A DNA stretch of 64,000 bases from positions 25,110,001 to 25,174,000 of the forward strand of contig NC_059438.1 of assembly GCF_021028975.2 (NCBI RefSeq), read 5' to 3'. The position numbers were made by a program, and so were the translations under genes. The notes beneath the pieces were generated by a model that was not told the DNA's origin, searched no databases, and saw nothing but the letters and a program-made list of their open reading frames with translations. Origin of the DNA: Sphaerodactylus townsendi. Its lineage: Eukaryota. The stretch's first letter is position 1. The number at the start of each line of letters is the position of its first letter. Of the stretch, positions 5,556 to 47,800 are shown one piece after another.

Positions 5556-5859
5556 GAAGAAGAAGAAGGGTTTTTGATCAAGGTCTCCTCTCCTCCCTTT
5601 CTCTCCTACAGGAGACTCAAAGGGGCTGACAATCTCCTTGCCCTTCCCTCCTCACAACAAACACCCTGTGAGGTGGGTGGGGCTGAGGGAGCTCCGAGAA
5701 GCTGTGACTAGCCCAAGGTCACCCAGCTGGCGTGTGTGGGAGTGCCCAGGCTAATCTGAATTCCCCAGAGAAGCCTCCACAGCTCAGGCGGCAGAGCTGG
5801 GAATCAAACCCGGTTCCTCCAGATTAGATACACAAGCTCTTAACCTCCTACGCCACTGC
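5556..5859 (-). mobile_element. tRNA-derived SINE (Squam3/L2-partner-like), full length
   Basis: Reverse complement of the SINE at 15781. (gaa)n tail at left. Confidence 0.85.
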
Positions 5860-15100: not shown

Positions 15101-18100
15101 AAACAATTTCAGATACAAATACATTAAATACTTCAGAAGATTTTAAAGACTAACATACAAATGAAACCAAGGGCTGATATTTTGGGTCTTATGGAAAGTT
15201 TGGGAAAAGATATAGAATTTCGTTTTGATATATGACATTGGCAGCAAGAACATTAAATTTTCCATTGTGTGCATATATCTACAATACAACAATGGCTTGT
15301 GAAGAAATTGGAATTGGTTGAGATGGTTAAGCTTACTTCTTTGCTTAGAGAGAAAAAAGCTTATCTAAGTATATCAATAACTGGAAACCCTGAAATAATG
15401 TTTGCTTTTAACAGAAAAAAAGAATGAACTGATGATTTGTAGATTTGAGGACTAGACCAATTTTAAAAAATGAATATAATAAAGAACAGCATGAATCTTA
15501 CTTAATAATAATTAAGAATTAACTGAACTTTAATTCCATAATTGTAACTAGAGAACAAGTGGTAATTTTTAAAACTGTGGTTATATTTGGTGCAGAAGCA
15601 ATTGGAAGCCTTTCCTATCCCTGCTGGTGGTGGTCTTGCCTGCCTCTTTTAAAAGTCCTAGTAAAAAACATTTACCTAAATACCCACCCAGACAATGGTG
15701 GAGAAAGAGAATTTCCCTGAAAACCAGCCCAGCAACTGCCCCTCCCTCCCCTTTTCTAATTCAGTTCATCTTTTTCCATCAGCAGCAGTGGTGTAGGAGG
15801 TTAAGAGCTCGTGTATCTAATCTGGAGGAACCGGGTTTGATTCCCAGCTCTGCCGCCTGAGCTGTGGAGGCTTCTCTGGGGAATTCAGATTAGCCTATGC
15901 ACTCCCACACACGCCAGCTGGGTGGCCTTGGGCTAGTCACAGCTTCTCGGAGCTCTCTCAGCCCCACCTACCACACAGGGTGTTTGTTGTGAGGGAGGAA
16001 GGGCAAGGGGATTGTAAGCCCCTTTGAGTCTCCTACAGGAGAGAAAGGGGGGATATAAATCCAAACTCCTCCTCTTCCTCCTCCTCCTCCTCCTCTTCTT
16101 CTTCTTCTTCTTCTTCTTCTTCTACCACCTATCGGTAACCTAATCGGTAATCGGTAGGGTTTTCTAGACAAGAGACCAACAGAGGTGCCTGCCTCTGCGT
16201 AGCAACCCTCAACTTCCTGGGCCGTCTCCCACCCGAGTACGGACCAGGGCCAATCCTACTTGGCTTCCAGGATTTGATAAGACCGGGCTGGCCTGGGCTT
16301 GAGTTTTCTATCTACTCTCAATGAGTCATTCAGCCAAAATAAATAACTGAATGGTTCATGTCCCTTTGCTTTGTAACGTAACAACTTAGTCACCGAGAGA
16401 CTGAAACAGAGCTTGGAGTTGTCTCTGGGCAAAATTCTGCATTTCAGGTCCAGTTTCTAGCCCCACGGTAGTTTTCACAGTGCTGGGAGAGGGTGGGAGA
16501 AAATGCAGTGCAGTGAACTCTTCCTTTGCTGTGAAAGGCAGTTTGCTTGCTCCAGCTGGTGTTCCGTCTAGGAATCCAGCTGAATTTCTGAATGGTGGAA
16601 TGGAGCCCTTTCTGTCACTCTCCTAAAAACAGTTGGAGGCAATCTGACTTCTCTCCTGTCTGATTTACCTGCATGATTCCCTGGGATAATTGGTTAGTCA
16701 TTGCCCAAGATGTGTAGTGACTTTTGCATTGTGCACAGGGCCTACAGAAGGGTGGGGGGGTATGTGTTAGGGCGTGGGTTAAATTAGAAATGGCTAGCAA
16801 GTGCTCGAGAGTGCCTGAGTTCTCCCTGGATGCAAAGAAAGAAGAAATAGGCACCAGCCACCTTGTGACTGGGCTGGAAAAGGAACCAGGACTTTCCTGC
16901 CTGAGCAATGCAAGGCCTTGGAGAGGAAAGATGAGGAGGAGCCTGCTGGGGTGGTTGGGTTGGTGGGCAGCTCTTCAGAGTGGAGGTGCCTTCTGTGTCC
17001 AGGTACAGTTCAGTCTGTTGCATTGGTGATGAAGAGGGGGCTCCGTGTGGCCTTGCAGGTGCCCCTGCTGAGCCAGCAATCACCCTGGGGTGGGTCTTAG
17101 GAAGGATGGGGGGTCACCCCCACGCAATGTTTTCCAGATTTTGCAAAGATGAACTAGCTGGCCTGCCTCTCCTGATGGGCTGTGCAGCACACACGCACAC
17201 ACCCTCTCCTTGCTTTGTAGCTCAAAGGAATGTGAGCAGGGCCGCCCAACACTGGCAGGACTGGAGCTCTGCCGCCTTGCCTTGCCTTGCCTTGCCCCCT
17301 TGGGAGAGTAAGCCAGGAGGGTCAGCCTGGGCGGTTTAATAAGGAACTATTGGAATCCCAGAGGGAGGAATCCTCACGGTGACATTTTCCCCTTGCAGAG
17401 CTCCCGCTGACCTTGACGCCCTCGGCTGAAGCGCAGGTAGGTTGATAAGCGCGGGGGGCGGGGCGGGGGCGGAGGAGAACAAACTTGGGCCCCTCCACTT
17501 CACCTGCCAATTCCTTAGGGTTCATTAAAAAAAAAATTAAAATCTTTACTGGAAGGAGATTCTTTCCTCTTCCCACTCAGCCAGAAGGAGACGCAGCTTA
17601 TAGGTGATTAGCTCCAGTGAATAACACTTCAGCCAGGGCTATAAATGGGGCAAGCTTCGACCTCCACAATCGCTCCACGTGATTTTTTCAGAGGCCAGCA
17701 GGAAAGTGCCCCCCACCCCCCCTGCCCCCAGCAGCTTTGTGCCTGAAACCGCTGCCCAACAGCCCAGCGTCAGTTTCTCTCTTCCGGGCCCTGGCAGAAT
17801 GGATCCCAGAGACTGGCACTCGCCCAGATGATCGTTCTCAAAGGCTCAGCAGCCCCCACCTTGTNNNNNNNNNNNNNNNNNNNNNNNNNNNNNNNNNNNN
17901 NNNNNNNNNNNNNNNNNNNNNNNNNNNNNNNNNNNNNNNNNNNNNNNNNNNNNNNNNNNNNNNNNNNNNNNNNNNNNNNNNNNNNNNNNNNNNNNNNNNN
18001 NNNNNNNNNNNNNNNNNNNNNNNNNNNNNNNNNNNNNNNNNNNNNNNNNNNNNNNNNNNNNNNNNNNNNNNNNNNNNNNNNNNNNNNNNNNNNNNNNNNN

Positions 18101-21100: not shown

Positions 21101-24100
21101 AGCAGCACCTGCCTGCCCCGCCCTCTCCAAACAGTCCTGTGTTTCTAACAGGCAGCCTGATGCTGCTCTCCTGGGCACCTCCCTGAAAGGTCAACTATTA
21201 CACCCATTGTCCAAATACTGCTCCCTACTTTAGCACTGCTGATGGCGGGGGTGGGGGGGGGTGTAGTAGCTGCTGCAAGCTCTCTCTTGGGTCCCTTCTG
21301 GTACTGCAGTCCCCACTGGCAGCAGAGGGGACTCTGCCTTGTTGGCAATTGCTCCTCCCCCCCCCAACACCTACAGGCTTTGATCCTGTGCCAGGGCAGG
21401 GCAGTCAGGTGTCCAGGTGTTTATCAAGAGACTTCTGCCTTCCGTCTTCTCAAGGTGGCTTACAAACTCCTTTTCCCTTCCTCTCCCCACAACAGGCACC
21501 TTGTGAGGTAGATGGGGCTAAGAGAGGTAGGAGAGAACTGTGATTGACCCAAGGTCACCCAGCAGGAATGTAGGAGTGCGGAAACACCTCTGGTTCACCA
21601 GATAAGCCTCTGCCAATCAGGTAGAGGAGTGGGGAATCAAACCCTGTTCTCCGGATTAGAACCCACCTGCTCTTAACCACGACACCACACTCAAATTATG
21701 GGTGGGGGAGGAAAGAGCCCCCAGCCCCTCCTGTGCACAGTTAGGCTGCTAGATTGCAGATCCCTAGGCAGGGAATCATGAACATGGAACCGAGTGGCGG
21801 ACCCTTGATGCAACTTGTGCAAAAGACGCTGCTCCCTTGGCTCTTCTGACCCACACCAGAAGGGGCCTGGTAGGTACCACCCTGTGCAGCCCCTCCAGAG
21901 TATCCTGACTCTTGCTTGGAGATCTTCCTTGTCCATGCGCAGGGTCCTTGTGGGGTGTGCTCTTATCAACCACTTGCTCAGGGCTTGTGGGAGGGGGCCT
22001 CTCATGCTAAAAACAACACCTTCCCAAGTGGGTGCCTTCTTTGGGAGGAGGGGCTTCCGTGTCTGGCTCCAGCTTGTGTGAATGAGAGGCCAAGAAGCAG
22101 AGGTGGGATCCAGCAGGTTCTCACAGGTTCCCGAGGGTAGGTTACTAATTATTTGTGTGTGCCGAGAGGGGGTTACTAATTGGTGATTTTGCCACATGAT
22201 TTTTGCCTTAGTTGCACCCCTCCTCTCAGCAGTAGCGCGCAGAACTTGAAGCAGTCTAGCAGGAGGTGCACCGGCGTGCATGGCAGCCTGCGCCTGCGTG
22301 CATTCGTTTCCCGCCCAAGGACTGGCGCTGCAGCTGCATCCTTGCCACAGCCCCACCCAGGAATGCCCCGCCCCTGGAATGCCCGGCCACGCCCCCGTCA
22401 TGCCTGGCCCAGCCCCATTGGCACTACGCCACAGTTTGAATCCCACCACCATGGGAACCTGTTACTAAAATGTTTGGATCCCACCACTGCCAAGAAGCCA
22501 TGTGGAAAGGGGCTTGGCTGTGTGGCCGGCTGTGAGTTGGGCCAGGCAGCAGCTCTTAGCTCGTGAGCCCGCCTGCCTTGCCAGGAAGTTACCGGTGGTG
22601 GAGACCTCAGCTGGAACACTGAACTGCTTTCTCCGTTTGGGGTGCAGATGCTGACAAAGCTGAAGGAGGAGGAAGATGAACAGCAGTCGGCAGCAGATCT
22701 GGACAGCCTGAGGAACACAGACTGGGTACGGAGGAGCTGGCCTGGCCTGGCGGGGGCAGGGGGCAGGGGCTTGGCCTTGCTGGGCTGTTTCCAGGCCAGG
22801 TGGAGGTATTTGCTGTCTTCACTGCCCCGTTGGAGGACGGGGCTCCCAGAAGAGGCACCTGCGTTCTGTGTCCAATCTGGCTACCCCTTGCTTAGAGGAA
22901 GAGGGACAGCAGGGGTGGGCCGGGAGGCCTAGGGGGGAGGGGCAGGGAGTGTGCCAGGGTCTAGCGGGCCCAGAGCCGGCAGTGCAATCTGTGATGAGCC
23001 CTCTTGACAGCCGGGATGCTTCTTCTTGTGGCAGGCTCGGCTGTGGGTGCAGCTGATGAGGGAGCTCCGGCACGGGGTCAAGCTGAAGAAGGTCGAGGAG
23101 AAACAGTTCAACCCCCTCCCCACCGAGTACCAGCTGACCCCCTTTGAGATGCTCATGCAGGACATCCGGGCTCGCAACTACAAGCTCCGCAAGGTCATGG
23201 TGAGCAGCAGGGACCCCCCCCCTTCCTTTCTCTATCCTTGGCCTTGCTAGTTTGCTGCTCCGGTTGACCGAGAGATTCTTCTAACTTGTGAACGTTCATC
23301 AGGTGGATGGTGACATCCCTCCCAGAGTGAAGAAGAATGCTCACGAGCTCATCCTGGACTTCATTCGGTCCCGCCCTCCCCTGAGACAGGTAACCTTCCA
23401 CGACACCCTGTGCGAGGGGGGTCAATTCAATTCAATTCAATTCAATAAGCCTTTATTGGCATATACACAGTGGCGTATCTGCCTAGGGACAAGGGGTACC
23501 CCTTGTCCCCGGGCGCCACTCTTCTGGTCACGTGGGGGGCGCAAAATTGGCCCCCCACGTGACCAGGAAGTCCTGCTGTCTCATCTGAGACCTGTCTGAG
23601 GCATGCAAAAACGAGGCAGCAGGACTTCCTGCTGCCTCCAAGCACCCTCAACCCCACCCTGGACTCCCCCTCCCTTCCTCCCAGATGGCAGGGGAAGTCT
23701 TGGGGGGAGGTGGGCACTCTAGACCTTGCCCATGTCCATGGTGATATGGGCGGGGTCGAGGGCAGTGTGGGTGGAGTCTGGGGGCATCAGAGGGCAGAGC
23801 TGGGGTGGTGGTGGGCAGAGCCTGGGGGGCGTCCTGGAGACAATTTGTCTCCGGGTGCCAGTTACCCCTGGTATGCCTCTGCATATACACGATAGTATAA
23901 AAATACAGTTCCAGTTAAAAAATGAATAGTAAAAAACTTCGCGTTTGTCATACATTCAGTTTACAAACTTCTGACAAAAACTTTGCCACTATAAGGCAAC
24001 AATGAAAATCCTGACAATTTAAAAGCATAACTACTTTATGTGATTCAGTATAATCAATCATAGAGTCTATGGCTTGGGATAACAGACTGGATCGGAGTTC

Positions 24101-32850: not shown

Positions 32851-35800
32851 AGTTAAAGTGCAATAAAAGGATGGAAGCAGGAACGTAGGATCATTAGGGG
32901 CAAAGCAAGGAACAAAACGGACACGAAGCAGCCCAGCACGCCTGATGTTCCCTGGCTAGAAGCAGACCACCAACCCCACCAAACAGATGACGACGCTGCT
33001 CCATTTAAAGCCTGTGTCTAGAAAGGTTTTTGCTTGGCCTCGCCAGCCTCCATGGGTCCTGTGTTCAGGATAAAGAGGACGGGAGATTCGTTGATTCATC
33101 CACCATCTTCTGGACCGTCTTTGTTCTAAAATTAGAATTAGGACTAATAAAAGGAAACACTTCTTCACGCAACGTGTGACTGGTGTTTGGAATATGCTGC
33201 CACAGGAGGTGGCGATGGCCACTAACCTGGATAGCTTTAAAAAGGGTTTGGACAGATTTATGGAGGAAAAGTCGATTTATGGCTACCAATCTTGATCCTC
33301 CTTGATCTGAGATTGCAAATGCCTTAGCAGACCAGGTGCTCGGGAGCAGCAGCAGCAGAAGGCCATTGCTTTCACCTCCTGCACGTGAGCTCCCAAAGGC
33401 ACCTGGTGGGCCACTGCCAGTAGCAGAGTACTGGACAAGATGGACTCTGGTCTGATCCAGCAGGCTAGTTCTTATGTTCTTATGTTCTTGAAATGCTCCA
33501 CTTGGGTCTTACTGGTGTCTTCCTAGCTCTGACCCCAATCAGAGTATTCTAGAACAAAGACGGTCCAGGAGATGGTGGATGAATTAACGACTCTCCCGTT
33601 CTCTTTATCCCGAACAGGGTATAGACCCCGCAGGCCTTCCAGAATGGCTACTGATCAGTTCCCCAGAGAACACAGCTGCTTTGGAGGGTCAGCTCTGTTG
33701 CATGATTCCTTCTGAGGGTCCTTTCCAGGCTCCACCCCCAAATATACAGGGGTTTTCCAACCCAAACGTGGTGACCATATTTTAGCCTGATACATACAAG
33801 AAAGTGGGCACTTGGTGAGGCCCTTCCAAATAGTGGCTAAGCCATTTGAGCCATGGTGACGTCCTGTGGCTCCAGAAACTGACTGGGTAAAGAATCTTTC
33901 CCTTTATCAGTTCTGAACCTGCTTCCCGCAGACTACTTGCTACTGGGACCTGGCATTGTTTTATTGGGTTGAGGCTGATCATTTTCCACGATGAGCTACT
34001 AGACATTTGAGTTTTACTGATGCTGCTGTTGGAAAGTTTAATATGGTGTGTCAAGTTCTTTGCTTCTAAGCAAAGAACTTGATTTTGTGTTCCTGCATTT
34101 GCAGGGGGTTGGACTTGATGGCCCTTGAGGTCTCTTCCAACTCTATGATTCTAAGGCCCCTTCCGCACACGCAAAATAATGCGTTTTCAAACCACTTTCA
34201 CAACTGTTTGCAAGTTGGTTTTTGCCATTCCGCACAGCTTCAAAGAGCACTGAAAGCAGTTTGAAAGTGCATTATTCTGCATGTGCGGAATGAGCCTAAG
34301 CTTCTCTGGTACCTATTTAAGCGTTACAAGAAAGAAGGGGAGGAGATTTTTTGTTGTTTTGGTCATGTGATCATAAAGCATTTCTTGTACAGAGTCAGAC
34401 TTTCAACCTATCTATGCCATTTTTGTTTACTCTGGCAGTGGCTCCCCAAGGTCCTAGAGGGGACCCTCCCCAGAACTGTTTCCTGAGTTTCCTTTATTAA
34501 GAGGTGATGGGGATTGATCTTTGGACCTTCTTTGTTCAAAACAGATGCTCTGAGCTGTGAACTCTTCCCTTTATAAGGGAACTAAATCCATGTATTGGCT
34601 TTGTTTTTAAAAAAATTGGGAAAGGGCATGTGCAGTCTCTGCCTGTTGTTTCTAATAATGAGAAGGATGCAGGTTCTGTTTGCTTGCTTGGGCTAATTGA
34701 AGTGTGCACTTCTTAAATTCTGTGCAGATAACTAACGATGATCCTGAAGCTGAGCCAGCCCCCAGTGAGGAGCGAGATGATTCTAGACTGCAAGAGCAGA
34801 GCCACACAAGGAACAGAGAAGAAGCTGATCTTGAATGTCCGGCAAATGACAGGGGGAACGATGGAGAAGAGATGGACCACCTGGACAAGATGGCAAGTAC
34901 CCTACAGTTGGCTAGGGTGGTACACTTGATCAGTGAAATCCTGGAGAAGGCAGGAAATCTTAGAGATCCCACCACCTGAGCAAAGGAACAATCCCCAGGA
35001 CAAAGTCCAAGGAGATCAGATGCGCTGTGTGGTTGTACCCAGAGTTGGATCACAGGTGTTCCAGTGATTCCGCATGTCAAGTGTGGAATAGCAGGAATTT
35101 TCTGGAACTCCAAAGATAAGAGGAGTGCTGCCTGGTGCCCAGTTGTGGCCAGCATTTGTTTGCACTGAACCAAATTATCTTTCCTTACTCAGTGCACTGA
35201 AGGGTTGCTTCTGCCTTCCCCTGGACTAGATCCCTTCTTTGTATTTGGGCTTTTAGCTGGACTCCTCAGGCTGGGTCTTATCAGTGTCACTTGTTTTCTC
35301 TCATCAAAAAAAAAAGGCTGCATCAACTAACAAAACACGGAAGAAGAAGAAGAAAAGGAAGAATAAGAAGAATGCAGCAGGCGAAACTCCTGTAAGTTTG
35401 GCTTGGTTTGAAGTTTAGTATTAAGTGCTTAAATTTGGATTCTAAAGTGCCTGATAAGATTTGGGGAGGATTAATGCAGAGAGCAAAAGCCAAGACAGAT
35501 CCCAAGGTCACCTTAGAAATTGGAGGTATTTGCATGAAGAAGAGGAGTTTGGATTTATACCCTGTTCTTCTCTCCTGTAAAGAGTCTCAAAGGGGCTTAC
35601 AAACTCCTTTCCCTTCCCTTCCCCACAATGGGCACCTTATGAGGTAGGTGGGGCTGAAATAATTCTGAGAGAACTGGCGGGCCCAAAGTCACCAAGCAGC
35701 TTCATGTGTAGGAACGTGGAAATAAATCCAGTTCACCAGATAGGAGTCTGCTGTTGATGTGGAAGAGTGAGAAATCAAACCTGGTTCTCCAAATTAGAGC

Positions 35801-38800
35801 CCACCACTCTTAACCACTACGTCATACTGTATCCTGGTGCAAGATTGGCTGTACAAAGGGATCTCCCAGGGATCTACAGCGCCATACCTGGCATGTGCAG
35901 TTGAAGCAGCCAGGGAGGGTCCAGCAATCAGGCCTCGTGCAACGGCAGGCGGGAGGAGCCTGGGAATCGGAGTCAGGTTTCCTTTGCTGCCTTTCTGATG
36001 TCTCCCTGCAGTCCCCTCGGGACAAAGACAATGACGCAGAAGATGTGGAGAGCGTCCTGGTGGGGCCGGAGAGCTCCTCGGAGCTGTGGGGCCAAAGCCA
36101 AAGCAGGGTCATCATGGACAGTCGGCCGCTGCTTTATGTGGAGCGCAGGTAAGAGTCAGAGACTGCCAGATGTTGCTCCTGATGTTGGAGGACGAGCCTT
36201 CCCCCGCCTGGTTCCCTGGAGTAACCGGAGTAGGTGGAGCCCGAGGCTTAACAGGGTGGGTAGGACTTAGTGCACTTTTTTTCCTGAAGAGGGCAGCACT
36301 GGCATGTTCTGGGATGGCCTGCACTGAAAGGAGGCTGCGTGACCCATGGCCTGCCCTGCTGGGACTGCAGACTTCTGCCTTTCCTGGGGTGGGGGAGTTG
36401 GGGGAGCTATGATATTTGCAGTGGGCAGCCTCCTCCGAGGGAGGAAGGGGAAGGCAGAGGATCGGGCCAGGTCTCCTGAGCAGGGACTTGAGAAAGCAGC
36501 ATCGTGGAGCTTGGCAAACAGGTGGACTTGCATGTTGATTTTTTTCCCCAGGAACCTGAATCCAGAAACTGAGCTGAAGAGATATTTTGGGGCCCGAGCA
36601 GTTCTAGGCGATCAGAGGTGAGAGCAGGCAGTCAAAGCATGAGATGGATTTTGAGGTCCCGGGAGAAAGTTGCTGCAGTCGTGTTCTAAAAATGCACGTT
36701 TCATATGCTTGTTTGCCGAACTGTTAAAGTTTGGGCTGAGGCTCTGTGAAAGCCTCAAGCGGAGTTAAGGACCGAGGGGCCACTGACAGGGAGCTTAGAA
36801 GCTGCCCACATCAAGGTCCACGAGAGAAGAGTCACGTCGGTGCCTCCCTAGAGGTAGAGCTGGTTTGTGGGTCATTGTTCTAATCCAATGGACCTTCTGA
36901 GCCCAACTCAGAAGCACTGGAGTTTTCCTGGGTTATTTGGATTCAGGTGAAATGAGGAGATTGGGGTGACTTTGAACCAGAGCTGGGCCCAGAATTTGCT
37001 AAGGAGGGTGGGGTGCCAAAAAACAGGGAACCACCCCACCTCAAAAAAGCGAGGAGATCAGCAAGGTACACCTGGGAGCTGGGTGGGCTTGGGCTCCTGG
37101 AAGCAATGGCAGAGGCACTGGGGGGTCAGTAACAGGCTGCCTCCTGCAGGTCACCTCCAGCTCAGCTCTTTCGTCCCCCCCATCTCTTCCTGGGAGCAGT
37201 TCCAAAGGGGGCTTCACAGAGACAGTTTGTGAGGAGGACAGCAGAGGTTCCGCCTTTCCTCATACTTTGGCTCATTCCGCACATGCAGAATAATGCACTT
37301 TCAAACTGCTTTCAGTGCTCTTTGAAGCTGTGCGGAATGGCAAAATCCACTTGCAAACAGTTGTGAAAGTGGTTTGAAAACGCATTATTTTACGTGTGCG
37401 GAAGGGGCCTTTGTTTCTAGAGGGAGGAGCCTGTGAACCTGCTGTCCTTGTTGGTGCTTGTCTTACTGTTCACTCAGGTGTTGCAACAACTTCGGACTCT
37501 CCGTGGGTGGGGGTGGAAGGGCTGAATGGGGCCCTCTCTGCAGATGAATCTGGATTTTTTTGTGGGGGAGGCATCTCAGCCCAGAGAATCTTGCAGTTCA
37601 GTCTCCAACCATTGGTGATGCTGACTTTTGTTTCTTCCACAGACCGAGACAGAGGCAGCGGTCACATCTCCGCAGCGCATGGCTCACTGTGCCCAAGAGC
37701 ACTTGGCCACGCCACAGCAAAACAGGTGAGCACCTCTTGTGTTGAACTCGGGCCAAAGCGCAGCTGGTCTTGTTCGTCAGCAGGGCAGCCTGTGTGCAGT
37801 GGATGCATGGCAGCAATGCGATTCTGGGTAAGCTACTGGAACTCATCTTCTTATGTGACGGGGGCAAGAGCTCTTGCCCAGAAACTTCGCACAGCTTTAG
37901 TGGGAAAGGGATGACTGTTTCCCACCATTGGTTTCAATTTCCCTGGCTACGTTCACTTCTTTGCTTGGGGAAATCCTGGCTTAGCTGACAGCTGAAAGAA
38001 AGACAGACCCTGTGGGTCAGAATAAAGGTGATTTGTAAGCACAGTGAGCCCAGTATTTTTGGACAAGTTCACCTAGTTAGAGTTATATATGTACTGCATC
38101 AAGAACTCAGAATGTGTGCTAGGAGGAAGCAGTGCAAAGGAAGTGCAATTATCTTCCCGTAGTCCAGTTGTACCTTCCAAGGTTTGGGCTTCTGAAGAAT
38201 TGGAATCTCTTGGTGAGGCTAGAAATAGAGGAGTCAGCGGATGCGGGTGGGTGGGTGGGAATCCAAGCCTTCTCTTGGAGGCACAGGTTGGGACTGACCT
38301 GAACAGCAGAAGCCACATGGCCCTACTATCTGGGACTCTGTTTTGTCTTTAAGCTGTGAATTCCGACCTCAGGTTAAACTGTGTGTTTTGTCGTCAAGAA
38401 TTGTGTCTGCTGGGCAGGCAGGAGGTGTTCTTCTGTGCCAGTGACCTTAACAGCCCCTTCCCCTCTAGGAGCAGCAGTGGTGTAGGAGGTTAAGAGCTCG
38501 TGTATCTAATCTGGAGGAACCAGGTTTGATTCCCAGCTCTGCCGCCTGAGCTGTGGAGGCTTATCTGGGGAATTCAGATTAGCCTGTACACTCCCACGCA
38601 CGCCAGCTGGGTGACCTTGGGCTAGTCACAGTTCTTCTGAGCTCTCTCAGCCCCACCCACCTCACAGGGTGTTTGTTGTGAGGGGGGAAGGGCAAGGAGA
38701 TTGTCAGCCCCTTTGAGTCCTGCAGGAGAGAAAAGGGGGATATAAATCCAAACTCTTCTTCTCTTCTAGGTCTCTCTATGCAGCTGCTTGAGTCAAAGCG

Positions 38801-41800
38801 AGGGGTGCAGCACTTTGCCTTTGAGCACCACAGAGAGTACCGGCAAGTGCAGTTCAAGTTCTTGGATGTGGTGGAGTCCATGGATCCCAACAACCTTGTG
38901 GTAGGTGTTCAACTGGGCGAGTTGGTGGTGCAGCGTCTGGGACCTTCCAGTGGCAAACCTCTGTGGTACAAAAAGATGGCCACAGAGACGATTCTCCCAA
39001 GATCTGAAATGCAGGATCGCAGATGGAAGATGCACTGAGGTTTTAGTCTCACTGAGGTTTTAGCCTGGCCCACGAGAGCTTTTCTCAGCCCTGGTGCAGA
39101 TTGTAGAAGTAGCAGTCAGTCAGTCAAGTATTTATTGTTTGAGCCATTGGCTATAACAATACAGAGATGCATGCAGTTAAAACATTTAAATTAAAACAAT
39201 AACTTAGTTTTACATTAAAATATAAATTATTTGTGTTTGCAATCTCTTCTTGGCCTTTTGGCTAAGATCAAGTGTAGTGCAGAAGTAGCAGCAACAGACA
39301 AGGATTTATTTCCAAAGCAGCAGTTGCGGAGCATCTCTGTAGTGGCACCAACCAAAGAGCCGCAAAATAACAAGTGTGCTTTTGGCCCTGCTGAGTCCCA
39401 CAGAAAGTTTTGCAAGGCTTTGAGGCTCAGCACATTGGGGTGGGAGGTGGGGATTGCCCTAGCAAAGCATTGTTTTTATTTCTTTACCCCCCTCCATACT
39501 TAACGTCCAGTTTGATAACAAATTCAGGAGGAAGCAGAAGCTCACTCTGCTTTTGTGGCTAATTGGTTGATCCTGATGGACGACATGACTGTTGTGTTTG
39601 GAGCAGGGACTCTGTGCCCTTCTGCCTCTCTCAAGCTCGTTCATCACCCCACGCCCTGTGGAAATAGTCTTCTTTTTCAGAGGCCCTTTAGTTTGCCGCC
39701 ATCACAACATTCTGAGGTCAGAAGTTCTGTAAGTTGGCTGCGCATCCTTCCTCTTCTTCCCCCAAAAAACAAATTTGGGATGGAACACAGTTGAGAGTCT
39801 GACCTGCCTGTCCTTGTTCAACAGGGGTGGAAAGCATCTGGCCTTGTTGCTCTTTGGAGCAGAGTTGTGATGAGGTCTGCAGAAGCTGCATTCATATCCA
39901 CACACACACACATAGCGCTTGAGTCCTGCCTGGGGGCTTGCTGGTTGGGAGGACCCTGCCTAATTGGACAAGAATCTGCTGGCAGGCAATTTTCCCAACT
40001 TGAGGGGGAGGGGGGAGAGTGATGCTTCAGGAGCAAGAATTGGACAGGCAGTTGTGCTATTTTTGAATTTTTCATTGCTTTGGGAAAAGATGCCTAATTT
40101 CTCTTGGTACTTAGAACAGACGCTCCTTTCAGGCTTTAATTAGGCACGCCAGAGCGAGTTAAGCACGGCAACAGCTTGGACTGTTGGAGGTACAAAGGAG
40201 ACAAAGAGCAAGATGGTTCCATGGCCTAATATTAGCGTAATGATGGAGACACTGACTGGCCCGGAGCCCAGCCCGATGCCCTTCCTGATAAGGTGAACGT
40301 GCCTTATCTTTGAAACTTCCATGCTGGCTCTTGCACACAGAGAGGATTTTGTCCAGGGCAGAGGCCTCCGTCGGCTTCCCAAAATAGCTCTTACATCGCC
40401 CACCTCATCCGCCATGGCTGAGAGGATTGCGGACAGCAGCTGGCAAGGATGAGCTAGCCAATCAAAGACAGTTCTGAGAGCCATCACCACTGGCATCGGG
40501 GCTGGGAACAGGACATGGCACGAGCTTTCAGCTGCCCCCAGTTCCTTGTCTGCCTTAAATGCCTCTCTCCACCTTGGGCAAGTTCCCCTTCAGGACAGAT
40601 GCCTGCAGGCCACACTGGTGGAGGACCCAGGCGGCACCTCAGGCTTTGCCTGGTGGGCTGGAGGGACGCAGCAAGCTCCCAGTCCTGCCCCTGGGTTCAT
40701 AAGTGGGGGTCCTCCACCGTTGGGAGGCAGGAAGGGTTCTGTGTTCCTCTCTCAAGAGCTGCCTGGAGAATCCCTCACCAACCTCCAGCCATTCTCTCTC
40801 TCTCTCTGTCTGCCGGCAGCTTCTGCTCCAGATGAACCCCTACCATGTGGACTCACTGCTGCAGCTCAGCGACGTGTGTCGGATGCAAGAAGACCAGGAG
40901 ATGGCCAGAGACCTTGTGGGTAAGAAGCGCAGGGCAGCCACGAAAGGCTGCCTCGCAGGGTTGCTGGGTGCCTTCCGGGGCCATCCCTAGATGAGGCCTC
41001 TGCTCCCAGAGGTGGGCACTAGTAACAGATGCAGGGGTGCCTTCTAAGGAGTATTGTAGGTGACTGAGCTCATGGGGCAAGGGCGGGGCGCAGGTTCATG
41101 TCTGGGATCAACCAGTCCCCTACACTGTGCCTAGTCATTTTATTCAGAAAAAAAATGTTGCTTGTCCAGGAACCTGCCCGAGGTGACTTACAATTTAAAA
41201 AAAACATTAAAAGATACTGATTAAAATCCAGCATTAAAAACCCAGCCATGCATAAAAACATAGACCAAAAGAACAGACCATTGACAGCTTAAAATACATT
41301 TCTGGACTAAAGTGGTATATTAAAAAAAACCTGAGTGAATATAAATGATTTGGCCTGACACCTAAGAGAGCAACACGGGCACCACGCTAGCCTCAAGGGG
41401 AAGGGCATTCCGTAAGCTAGGGGCCACCACAGAAAATGCCCTGTGTCTGATTGCCGTTCACCTCATCTCTGGAGGTGCAAGCACAGAGAGCAGGACTTCT
41501 GAGGCAGATCTTAACTCGTGGCCTGGATAATACAGGTGGCCGCGGTCCTTTGGGTGCCCTGGCACCATTCAGGGCGGAGTTTTGGAGGCCTTTATCCTGA
41601 TGGGATCCGGTACAGCCAATTACAGCTGTCTAAACCAGCACCATACTAGAGTCACAGTTGCTTCCTGAGCACCTGAGATTTTTAAATGTTCCTGCTTAAA
41701 AGTTTGTCTGTTTTTACATTCACTTAATTGGGAGCCTTGATCATGTGGATAGGCAGCATAAAAATGTGTGTATATATATATATGCCACTGGTGTATACCA

Positions 41801-44800: not shown

Positions 44801-47800
44801 CGCTCACGAGAAAGCCTCCGATCTCGTTCGGCAGGCGCTGATCATGTTTCCGAGTGGTGAGTTGGAAGCCGGGGGGAGATTACGCAGAGATGCCAGGCTG
44901 GGCCCTGGAAGGGAAGCCGGAGACCTCTGTGTGCCCAGCAGGGGTGTCGTTTGGGGCCCCATTCAGCAGAGAGCTTGATGTGCACTTGGGTGCAGGGTGA
45001 CTCACAAAACCAGGGCGGAAACCGTCAAAGGGGTTGGTCCTGGGCCATCAAAGAGAGGTTGAACTTCCTCGTCCCTAGCGGTGGTTAGCAATGGAAGTGG
45101 AGTCACCAAGCCTCCTCCCTTGGGGTTTTCCCCTATTGATGGAGCTGCCCTCTGCTTGCGGGGGAGGGGGTTCAGGTGCTGCAGAAGTCCAGGCAGCAGG
45201 AATGCAGACTAGAGACTCCAGGTATTTGTACTGGGCAAGTTGGTGAGAGCAGCCCTTGCTATGTAAAGAAGAGGTGGAAGAGGGTGTTGCATAGATTCAC
45301 ACCTCTTGACAAGGGAGGGTCAGTGGGGTGGTTACTCCCTCCCCCCCCCAGTTCTCTTGTGCTGAATAAAACCTGGTTTATATTGCCGAAGGCTTTCATG
45401 GCCGGAATCACTGGGGTGTTGTGGGATTTCTGGGCTGTATGGCCCTGTTCCAGTTGTGGCAAACCTTTGGCACTTGTAGTCCATAACATCTGGAGTGCCC
45501 AAGGTTCGCCACCACAGCGTAGGATTTTCTCCTGATGTTTCACCTGCATCTGTGGCTATCATCTGCCACCAGATCCTCTGAAGATGCCAGCCACAGATGC
45601 AAGCGGAACGTCAGGAGAAAATGCTACTGGAACACGGCCAATACAGCCCGGAAGTCCCACAACCCCCCAAACCCTTGTTTCTTCCTGCTTCACAGTTGCT
45701 CAGAAAGACAGTGGCATGAATCCGCAGAAGAGGGTGTCTGCTTTCAGCCCCATTTCTCATGACCCACTCTCTGTGTTTCTGGCCTCACCTGCCCTCCAGA
45801 GCCCTGCCTGACTTTGCCCAGCTATTGCAGATGTGGGCACCCTGCTCTTTGCCACCCTGCTGCTCCTGCTGCTGCTGCTCTTGCCCCTGGGGGGTGGGCG
45901 GAGAACTTTTCTCTATCCCACCCGCACAAGGGTCACTGTTTGCTGAACAACTGTTAGCTTTGTTAGGCAAGAATATCTGTTTCATTGGAGAGGGGGGGGG
46001 GAGTCTAGTTTGTGTATACCCATGACAGGGAGCGTCCTTTCAACATTTGTCAGCTTAAAATAAACACTTGGGAGCTGCTGTGGGGTGGGGTGTGTGTTGT
46101 GTTTTCCTTGCCTTTTTTCCCATTACTTGGGCCAGGACCTGCCACTGCCTGTATTCTGTTCCAGGCCAACTCACTTTGTTCAGAATCTGGTTCAGGGGAG
46201 GTCTTGGGGGTTCTGCCTGTTTTGTGGGGGCTGCGTCCCACTCTCACAGCCCCAGTACGAGCTGTACTGGATGGCTGGCTGTCAAGGGTGCTCTTTGGCC
46301 CCAGATGAAGTGGTAGGGAAGGGATGACTTAGGCCCGTGGTGGCGAACCTTTGGCACTCCAGATGTTTTGGACTACAATTCCCATCAGCCCCTGCCAGCA
46401 TGGCCATGCTGGCAGGGGCTGATGGGAATTGTAGACCATAACATCTGGAGTGCCAAAGGTTCGCCATCACGGACTTAGGCACTGGAGAAAAGCAAGCCAG
46501 GCCGCTGCAGCCCTCGGCCCCTAGGGTGTCAGGGGCCCAGCCAGGCTTGTCTGTATGTCAGATGTTCCTTTGGCTTGGCAGCAGTCTCCCTTTTCTTTGC
46601 AGGGGGCCCCTTTCACCCCTGTGGGGAGCTTCAGGGGACCCCGTCACATCAGAGGGACCGATTCCCAACCGCAGAGAATGTTAGAGCCTCCCCTCGAAGA
46701 CCCACAACAGCCAACACCTTCTCAAGCAACCCTCTGGGTTTGATTCTCTGCTCTGCCACCTGAGCTGTGGAGGCTTATCTGGGGAATTCAGATTAGCCTG
46801 TGCACTCCCACACACGCCACCAGCTGGGTGACCTTGGGTTAGTCACAGGTTCTGGGAGCTCTCTCAGCCCCACCTACCTCACAGGGTGTTTGTTGTGAGG
46901 GGGGAAGGGCAAGGAGATTGTAAGCCCCTTTGAGTCTCCTGCAGGAGAGAAAGGGGGGATACTTTTTCTTCTTCTTCTTCTTCTTCTTCTTCTTCTTCTT
47001 CTTCTTCAACCCAAAGAGCTAGGAAGGCGGGGGCTTCCCCCAGCCGTCCTGGGTGGTGCAACACGGCTGTGACTCGCTTTCTGAACTACGGCTTTTTTTA
47101 AAAAACCTCCTTGTCCCTCTTGTAGTTCTGATGCCTTTGCTGGACCACTGCAGCGTGCAGCCGGACGCGATGGTGGCCTCCCACTCGTTCTTTGGGCCAG
47201 ATGCCCAGTTAAGGTACAATATGGCTGGGGGCCGCTTTGCACTTCCGAGCGAGAGAGGAAGGAGCCCAGTAGCTCAGCAGCTGAGTCTGTGGAGTCCCCG
47301 GAAGAAAGTTGGAAGGCAGGAGCTTGAGGGGTAGTGGAAAGAGAGCTGGGGACGCAGGGTTTTTCTGCAGACCCCTGGAAAGGTGTTGGGTCCAAGAGTT
47401 GACACCCATGAGCTAACCATAAACCCTCCAGCCCTGCAGGCCATCAAAAAGAACCTGCGGGCAAGGTGTCACTGCGCTCCTTTTCTCCCCTGAGCGATGG
47501 CCTCTGTGCCTCCACTATAGCAGAATCTTGTCCGTCTAGCTCCTAGACACCTTTGTGATAAAATGTCTAGAATCTTTTGCACCCCTGCAGGAAGTCTCTG
47601 GTTCTTCCTGGCAGTTGGCTTTTGTGTTGGGGGGGAGGTGAGGGGCCAGCTGTGCCTGAGAGAGCTCTGCAGGAAGGGGCTGGTTGCCCTCCATGGGGGC
47701 CACCCACAGCCAAGCTCTGCTGTGTCTTGGCTGCCCAGCGGCGGAATTTTTCCCTGGGACTTTGCTCCCTCCAGACCCCTCTTTTGCGCTGACCGTCTGC

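Follow-up and report, generated by a model that had tools for sequence, protein, structure and literature searches.

How a gene can remain functional after a retroposon has landed directly on one of its 3′ splice sites is the question raised by TCF25 in Sphaerodactylus townsendi. In the window (the whole analysed stretch of 64,000 nucleotides; contig NC_059438.1, positions 25,110,001 to 25,174,000 of the forward strand), a SINE lies in sense orientation relative to TCF25 at the acceptor of exon 7. The initial annotation proposed that this element was inserted exactly at the ancestral acceptor, that it duplicated the AG, and that the upstream AG is now a poison splice site with a potential regulatory role.

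Protein mapping yields a TCF25 gene model of 18 coding exons with an open 707-codon frame, in which 614 of 682 residues are those of the mapped Euleptes TCF25 protein. The TCF25 family (Pfam PF04910) is recovered with the exon-7 translation alone, the top match being a gecko protein at 98%. Protein searches yielded no annotated protein of this species at 100% identity, and thus no exon 6/7 junction from annotation. The gene is single-locus, each of the 17 matches that the protein has in the genome falling inside it, and no processed copy recording the exon 6/7 junction is found among these 17. At exon 2, the gene model picks an apparent GC donor (34892-34894), while the exon-3 acceptor (35290-35316) carries an A run directly 5′ of its AG, which is unusual as a pyrimidine tract. 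The features around exon 7 are as follows, with a slash marking the exon boundary:

37643-37725 (+): TCF25 exon 6, 83 nt, donor CAG/GTGAGC, phase 1
38445-38451 (+): branch-point-like CCTTAAC, an ancestral candidate whose A at 38450 precedes the stranded AG by 18 nt
38454-38469 (+): ancestral C-rich tract and stranded acceptor TAG/G, the AG ending at 38468; the position of the single acceptor of the relative called organism D below
38468-38767 (+): Squam3B-type SINE, sense; head start within 38468-38470, its GG being ambiguous with the target
38483-38485 (+): premature stop TAG, reached from the AG at 38468, 38471, 38474 or 38477, with a product of 245-248 aa
38740-38746 (+): distal branch-point candidate ATATAAA, a weak match with its A at 38745; the only candidate, in a 34-nt AG-free zone
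38753-38770 (+): SINE tail tract and exon-adjacent acceptor TAG/G, the AG ending at 38769
38770-38900 (+): TCF25 exon 7, 131 nt, donor GTG/GTAGGT

The letters on which the initial annotation was built are confirmed, namely the two TCTAGG copies (38464-38469 and 38765-38770, enclosing an element of 295 nt), CCTTAAC at 38445-38451, the end of exon 6 at 37725, and the start of exon 7 at 38770. The open frame of TCF25 requires the distal AG at 38769, which alone gives the conserved junction between exons 6 and 7, where the residues agree with those of homologues. Exon 7 measures 131 nt via this AG and 432 nt via the upstream one. From the upstream AG at 38468, the reading is G-A-A-V-V-stop, and the protein would end at 248 residues; the immediate stop claimed for this site is thus TAG at 38483-38485.

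That the SINE was inserted into an existing acceptor is borne out by the gene model together with an empty site in organism D (run X9), which is about 10% diverged (62 substitutions in 590 intron letters). The site is carried by one contig of 792 letters. Its letters 1-119 align without gaps to 38351-38469 and are followed by a loose end that equals exon 7 from 38771, and from letter 116 the same contig aligns to 38767-39100, with more than 330 letters on the exon side. D therefore passes from the upstream flank through a single TAG/G into exon 7, whereas the window has TAG/G on each side of the SINE, as expected for a duplicated AG. The net insertion is 301 nt, by which an existing intron, intron 6, has been lengthened. 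The initial annotation further predicted the letters of the single acceptor in an ortholog lacking the SINE. The contig bears out this prediction for the single TAG/G that leads into exon 7, though not letter by letter for the tract before it. Because TAGG alone fits both flanks, D probably differs directly before TAG, and the ancestral tract letters are unread in D since six of the 12 differences on that piece are unlisted.

Both SINE junctions recur in run X3, a further sample of organism A, and in run X6 from organism C, whose divergence is about 4% (22 substitutions over 563 letters of intron). The 3′ junction also occurs in run X4. Runs X10 and X13, of small share, yield no alignment over 37600-38484. 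The junction contigs of A and C reach 21-28 letters into the SINE, which is below the 31-letter bridging rule, because the contigs break within the repeat. In the one sample of organism C, no loose end at 38469 was seen. Among the joints listed, where SINE contigs predominate and a further 302 joints go unlisted, there is no empty-site row for A or C, which carries no weight with regard to polymorphism. Although the SINE is a high-copy repeat that an assembler might mis-join to the acceptor, such an artefact is largely refuted by the recurrence of these junctions and is hardly credible. As D is empty and A and C are filled, the insertion is dated between the split of D and the split of A and C. 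Measured against the majority of 32 relatives, the SINE copy departs at 5 of 283 letters, and this distance of 1.8% would be in line with an insertion not long before A and C split. A and C differ at two positions in exon 7, both of them synonymous. Organism C has no listed change over 38445-38464 or 38742-38769, as is expected by chance at 4% (about 0.44 for 38445-38464).

Run X4 additionally holds a second exon-7 sequence over 38765-38907, which is about 92% alike (12 differences in 143 letters) and whose intron diverges. Since window-identical contigs are present too, this run is probably a mixed sample. The alignment of the second sequence from 38765 offers a weak hint that TCTAGG may be old.

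The SINE itself is assigned on the basis of by-eye comparison with supplement 1 of PMC7983390 by Vassetzky et al. Its tRNA-like head, which carries an A-box-like match at 38478 and a B-box-like match at 38523, resembles the gecko Squam3B rows. Compared with the Squam3A rows, the GTCAC motif is followed by 11 additional letters, which correspond, again by eye and not by computed alignment, to the Squam3B insertion, and the body and L2-like 3′ part match Squam3. A CTT tail (38753-38767) is likewise present in all relatives. With the head, the body, the 3′ part, the 11-nt insertion, the CTT tail, and the scarcity of target duplications, the element agrees with Squam3B as far as the accessible part of PMC7983390 describes it. 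It differs in length, since Squam3B measures 238 nt there (267-271 for 3B3) and the element about 285 nt without its tail, as well as in its 5′ end. The surplus of about 58 nt lies in the head half (38534-38602); copies devoid of it appear as a 67-nt skip with nine other letters in four of four runs. Because of this extra part, the SINE is taken as a lineage variant derived from Squam3B and belonging to no described subfamily.

By its letters, the SINE is full-length, young, and high-copy, the other best copies being 96-97% identical (41 matches, from 40 scored candidates of 1627). The variant is apparently a young subfamily outside the 2021 Squam3 alignment, with more than 1600 candidates in the genome; tens of thousands of CTT-tailed Squam3B copies are reported for gecko genomes in PMC7983390. 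Three further young copies of the variant lie in the window at 92-93% identity to the focal one, at 15779-16075 (+), 5591-5859 (−), and 46737-46961 (+), the last of which ends about 165 nt 5′ of exon 13. Two older relatives occupy 21449-21688 and 35538-35815. Rfam returns only snoR442 and mir-1270 over the SINE, both far under their gathering scores, and no strong donor for a cassette exon is found among the 18 GT sites within it.

A separate insert is present in intron 7. A 5′ fragment of U2 snRNA (39242-39281; Rfam U2, E 1.8e-06, below the gathering score) forms the 3′ end of an insert of about 176 nt, which is flanked by a 14-nt direct repeat (39102-39115 and 39278-39291) and whose first part is itself repetitive. 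The insert is likely a retroposed chimera.

The TCTAGG repeat had been read as a target-site duplication, and this claim holds in part. TAGG fits both sides of the empty site in D, but five of the six repeat letters can be attributed to the SINE or the target, because the head is often preceded by GG and the tail is of the CTT type. Among 32 full-length copies retrieved with queries free of flank letters, GG stands directly before the head in 21 and AGG in 14; the letter after the pyrimidine run is A in 23 and is followed by G, giving AG, in three (10 of 69 when all other copies are taken). A further 30 loci came from a query that included flank letters and are biased; these were kept out of the 32-copy counts. 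Repeats of at least 4 nt flank 8/32 copies (14/69 overall) compared with 7.6% of mismatched flank pairs, those of at least 5 nt flank 5/32 (8/69) compared with 2.2%, and those of at least 6 nt flank 1/32 (3/69) compared with 0.8-0.9% under the same rule. The short repeats of the family begin in pyrimidines and frequently include TA.

It is possible, if rather doubtful, that the SINE entered by a blunt insertion between TCT and AGG with little or no target duplication, such that a head bearing AGG and a tail ending in TCT mimic a repeat. The upstream AG would then be SINE-born and the downstream AG original, with the splicing outcome unchanged. The enrichment of repeats of at least 4 and at least 5 nt over the control speaks against this, as do several repeats that extend past the tail (CTAAG, TTATG, and TTGTAG); moreover, identical letters result from a short staggered cut when microhomology is present at each end. 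In the TCF25 copy, target duplication and microhomology are inseparable, as a staggered cut and a blunt insertion leave the same sequence. Either way, a 3′ splice site resembles the usual target of the SINE family, whose tail supplies a ready-made pyrimidine tract.

The two acceptors differ in composition. As the initial annotation recognized, the tract of the productive site (38753-38767) is wholly the CTT tail of the SINE. Over 17 letters, the distal site has 14 pyrimidines, eight of them T, versus 13 and three upstream. A crude acceptor score trained on the 16 other TCF25 acceptors only gives 6.3 for the distal and 3.5 for the upstream site (−12.8 to 10.2 for the other acceptors, leave-one-out), and three SINE-internal AGs outscore the stranded one. 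The better match to the branch-point consensus yUnAy stays with the upstream acceptor, the distal candidate being weak. Because the SINE tail now acts as the pyrimidine tract for the exon-adjacent AG, TCF25 likely stays functional.

RNA folding adds a further predicted feature:

38715-38774 (+): predicted hairpin in which the purine-rich 3′ part of the SINE pairs with the tail and the distal AG

The predicted energy is −24.9 kcal/mol over 38715-38785 and −29.9 kcal/mol at 28 °C, and 3′ stem-loops are described as a feature of L2-partnered SINEs in PMC1636434. The hairpin is the most stable among 63 SINE 3′ ends (median −17.2), in part because the AGG flank pairs as well. The mean unpaired probability of the distal tract and AG is 0.10 in three settings, the lowest of 18 candidate acceptors, compared with 0.34-0.51 for the upstream acceptor and 0.49-0.72 for a modelled empty site. 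However, the constitutive acceptors of exons 5 and 18 (E5 and E18) are predicted to be nearly as paired in some settings (0.11-0.17), and folding of the whole region is not above that of shuffles (z −1.04). The predicted burial of the distal acceptor in this hairpin makes leakage to the upstream site plausible; since E5 and E18 are almost as paired, the hairpin permits such leakage without demonstrating it. The predicted low accessibility leans toward the regulatory idea of the initial annotation.

The preferred reading, to which a probability of roughly 0.7 is given, is that of a tolerated, self-rescuing insertion, in which the SINE tail feeds the exon-adjacent AG and the stranded AG is a likely decoy, free of regulation, whose rare products would be removed by nonsense-mediated decay (NMD). 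In the proposed sequence of events, a sense CTT-tailed Squam3B-type SINE would have inserted at the exon-7 acceptor and left TAG/G on both sides, its reverse transcription being primed at a pyrimidine-TAG site by microhomology between tail and target, and the cut being short and staggered. The distal AG would then be dominant owing to its U-richer tract and to an exon of 131 rather than 432 nt, some leakage to the stranded AG would be tolerated, and the rare transcripts produced there would be degraded by NMD. A stop codon that lies well before a later exon junction usually renders an mRNA an NMD substrate, and the premature stop at 38483-38485 lies upstream of 11 such junctions.

The same stop could also serve a switch, in which cells alternate between the two AGs to tune TCF25 via NMD, possibly gated by the hairpin. 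The 11 downstream junctions and a hairpin over the productive site that is predicted to strengthen at 28 °C would suit this idea, as would the regulated retained intron of mouse Tcf25, but that is intron 17, elsewhere in the gene (PMC9627664), and the TCF25 splicing treated in the accessible parts of PMC9224647 and PMC9627664 concerns other introns. Between 38441 and 38735 there are 33 other AGs, of which 31 likewise give a truncated product, and skipping of exon 7 also truncates, so the poison stop is the default outcome rather than a sign of design or selection. Given also that three SINE-internal AGs score above the stranded one, that the insertion is recent and missing from D, and that the unchanged 38445-38464 in organism C matches chance expectation, regulation by this acceptor is very unlikely.

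A substantial but unregulated share of splicing to the stranded acceptor, lowering productive TCF25 mRNA, is an unlikely alternative to the self-rescuing insertion. Such a leaky hypomorph would have persisted because the protein level is set after translation. According to the accessible part of PMC10792078, TCF25 mRNA is abundant and in excess of a short-lived, proteasome-controlled protein, and the gene is non-essential in cell lines; a moderate loss of mRNA would therefore be buffered, and this explains tolerance while weakening the case for control at the splicing step. The contrasts in branch point and predicted accessibility between the two acceptors favor leakage, and canine merle provides an example of a SINE insertion after which two acceptors are used to graded extents (PMC6091007). 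Substantial use of the stranded site would, however, require a 432-nt exon behind a C-rich tract, E5 and E18 are constitutive despite being predicted nearly as paired, and the insertion is common to A and C.

As a single locus, the self-rescuing insertion in TCF25 is a curiosity. It nevertheless documents, cleanly and in nature, how a retroposon survived in the worst landing place, and close relatives supply both the filled and the empty allele; if recurrent across gecko genomes, the process would generate new alternative acceptors that break the reading frame. A bolder and highly speculative extension, for which the odds are slim, would cast CTT-tailed squamate SINEs as acceptor-rebuilding retroposons. 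Tail-primed insertion would favor pyrimidine-TAG sites, 3′ splice sites would be hit repeatedly, and each sense insertion would regenerate an acceptor and strand a poison decoy; at TCF25, the hairpin would gate the choice (e.g., by body temperature), which would place a ribosome-quality-control gene under a lineage-specific NMD switch. A literature search, with subscription journals and bioRxiv supplements outside its scope, returned no report of the TCF25 locus or of the acceptor-rebuilding route in squamates.

Several known systems share parts of this arrangement. Introners, as described in the accessible part of PMC11282704, likewise co-opt an AG within the target duplication as an acceptor and leave an insertion that can be removed by splicing. 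They create a new intron inside an exon, whereas at TCF25 an intron already present grew by 301 nt and gained no new donor. In NF1, four de novo Alu insertions at 3′ splice sites are reported to cause exon skipping and disease (PMC3219598); there too a retroelement occupies the AG or the pyrimidine tract, and one sense AluY lies right at the AG. A poly(A) tail beside an AG would be unable to replace the pyrimidine tract, while a CTT tail would be able to do so.

The closest case is canine merle, in which a SINEC_Cf lies at the boundary of PMEL intron 10 and exon 11, a 15-bp duplication holds the acceptor, and splicing is diverted to an alternative acceptor by the oligo(dT) (PMC7349775, PMC6091007). 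Common to both are a tRNA-type SINE at an intron-exon boundary, an acceptor within the duplicated target (at TCF25, the empty site in D and TAGG on both sides), a simple-repeat tail as pyrimidine tract, and two competing acceptors, which in the gecko are known from sequence. In the accessible parts of these reports, the merle SINE is antisense, and its oligo(dT) is far from the exon and feeds an aberrant in-frame site. The TCF25 SINE has no such antisense oligo(dT): it is in sense orientation, with a CTT tail that directly adjoins the exon and serves the productive site, and the alternative is a stop. The merle allele also segregates with a phenotype, whereas the gecko insertion is shared by two differently labelled organisms. 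The route at TCF25 is thus opposite to that of the Alu disease insertions and a mirror image of merle, in that a sense pyrimidine tail mends the very site that its insertion broke.
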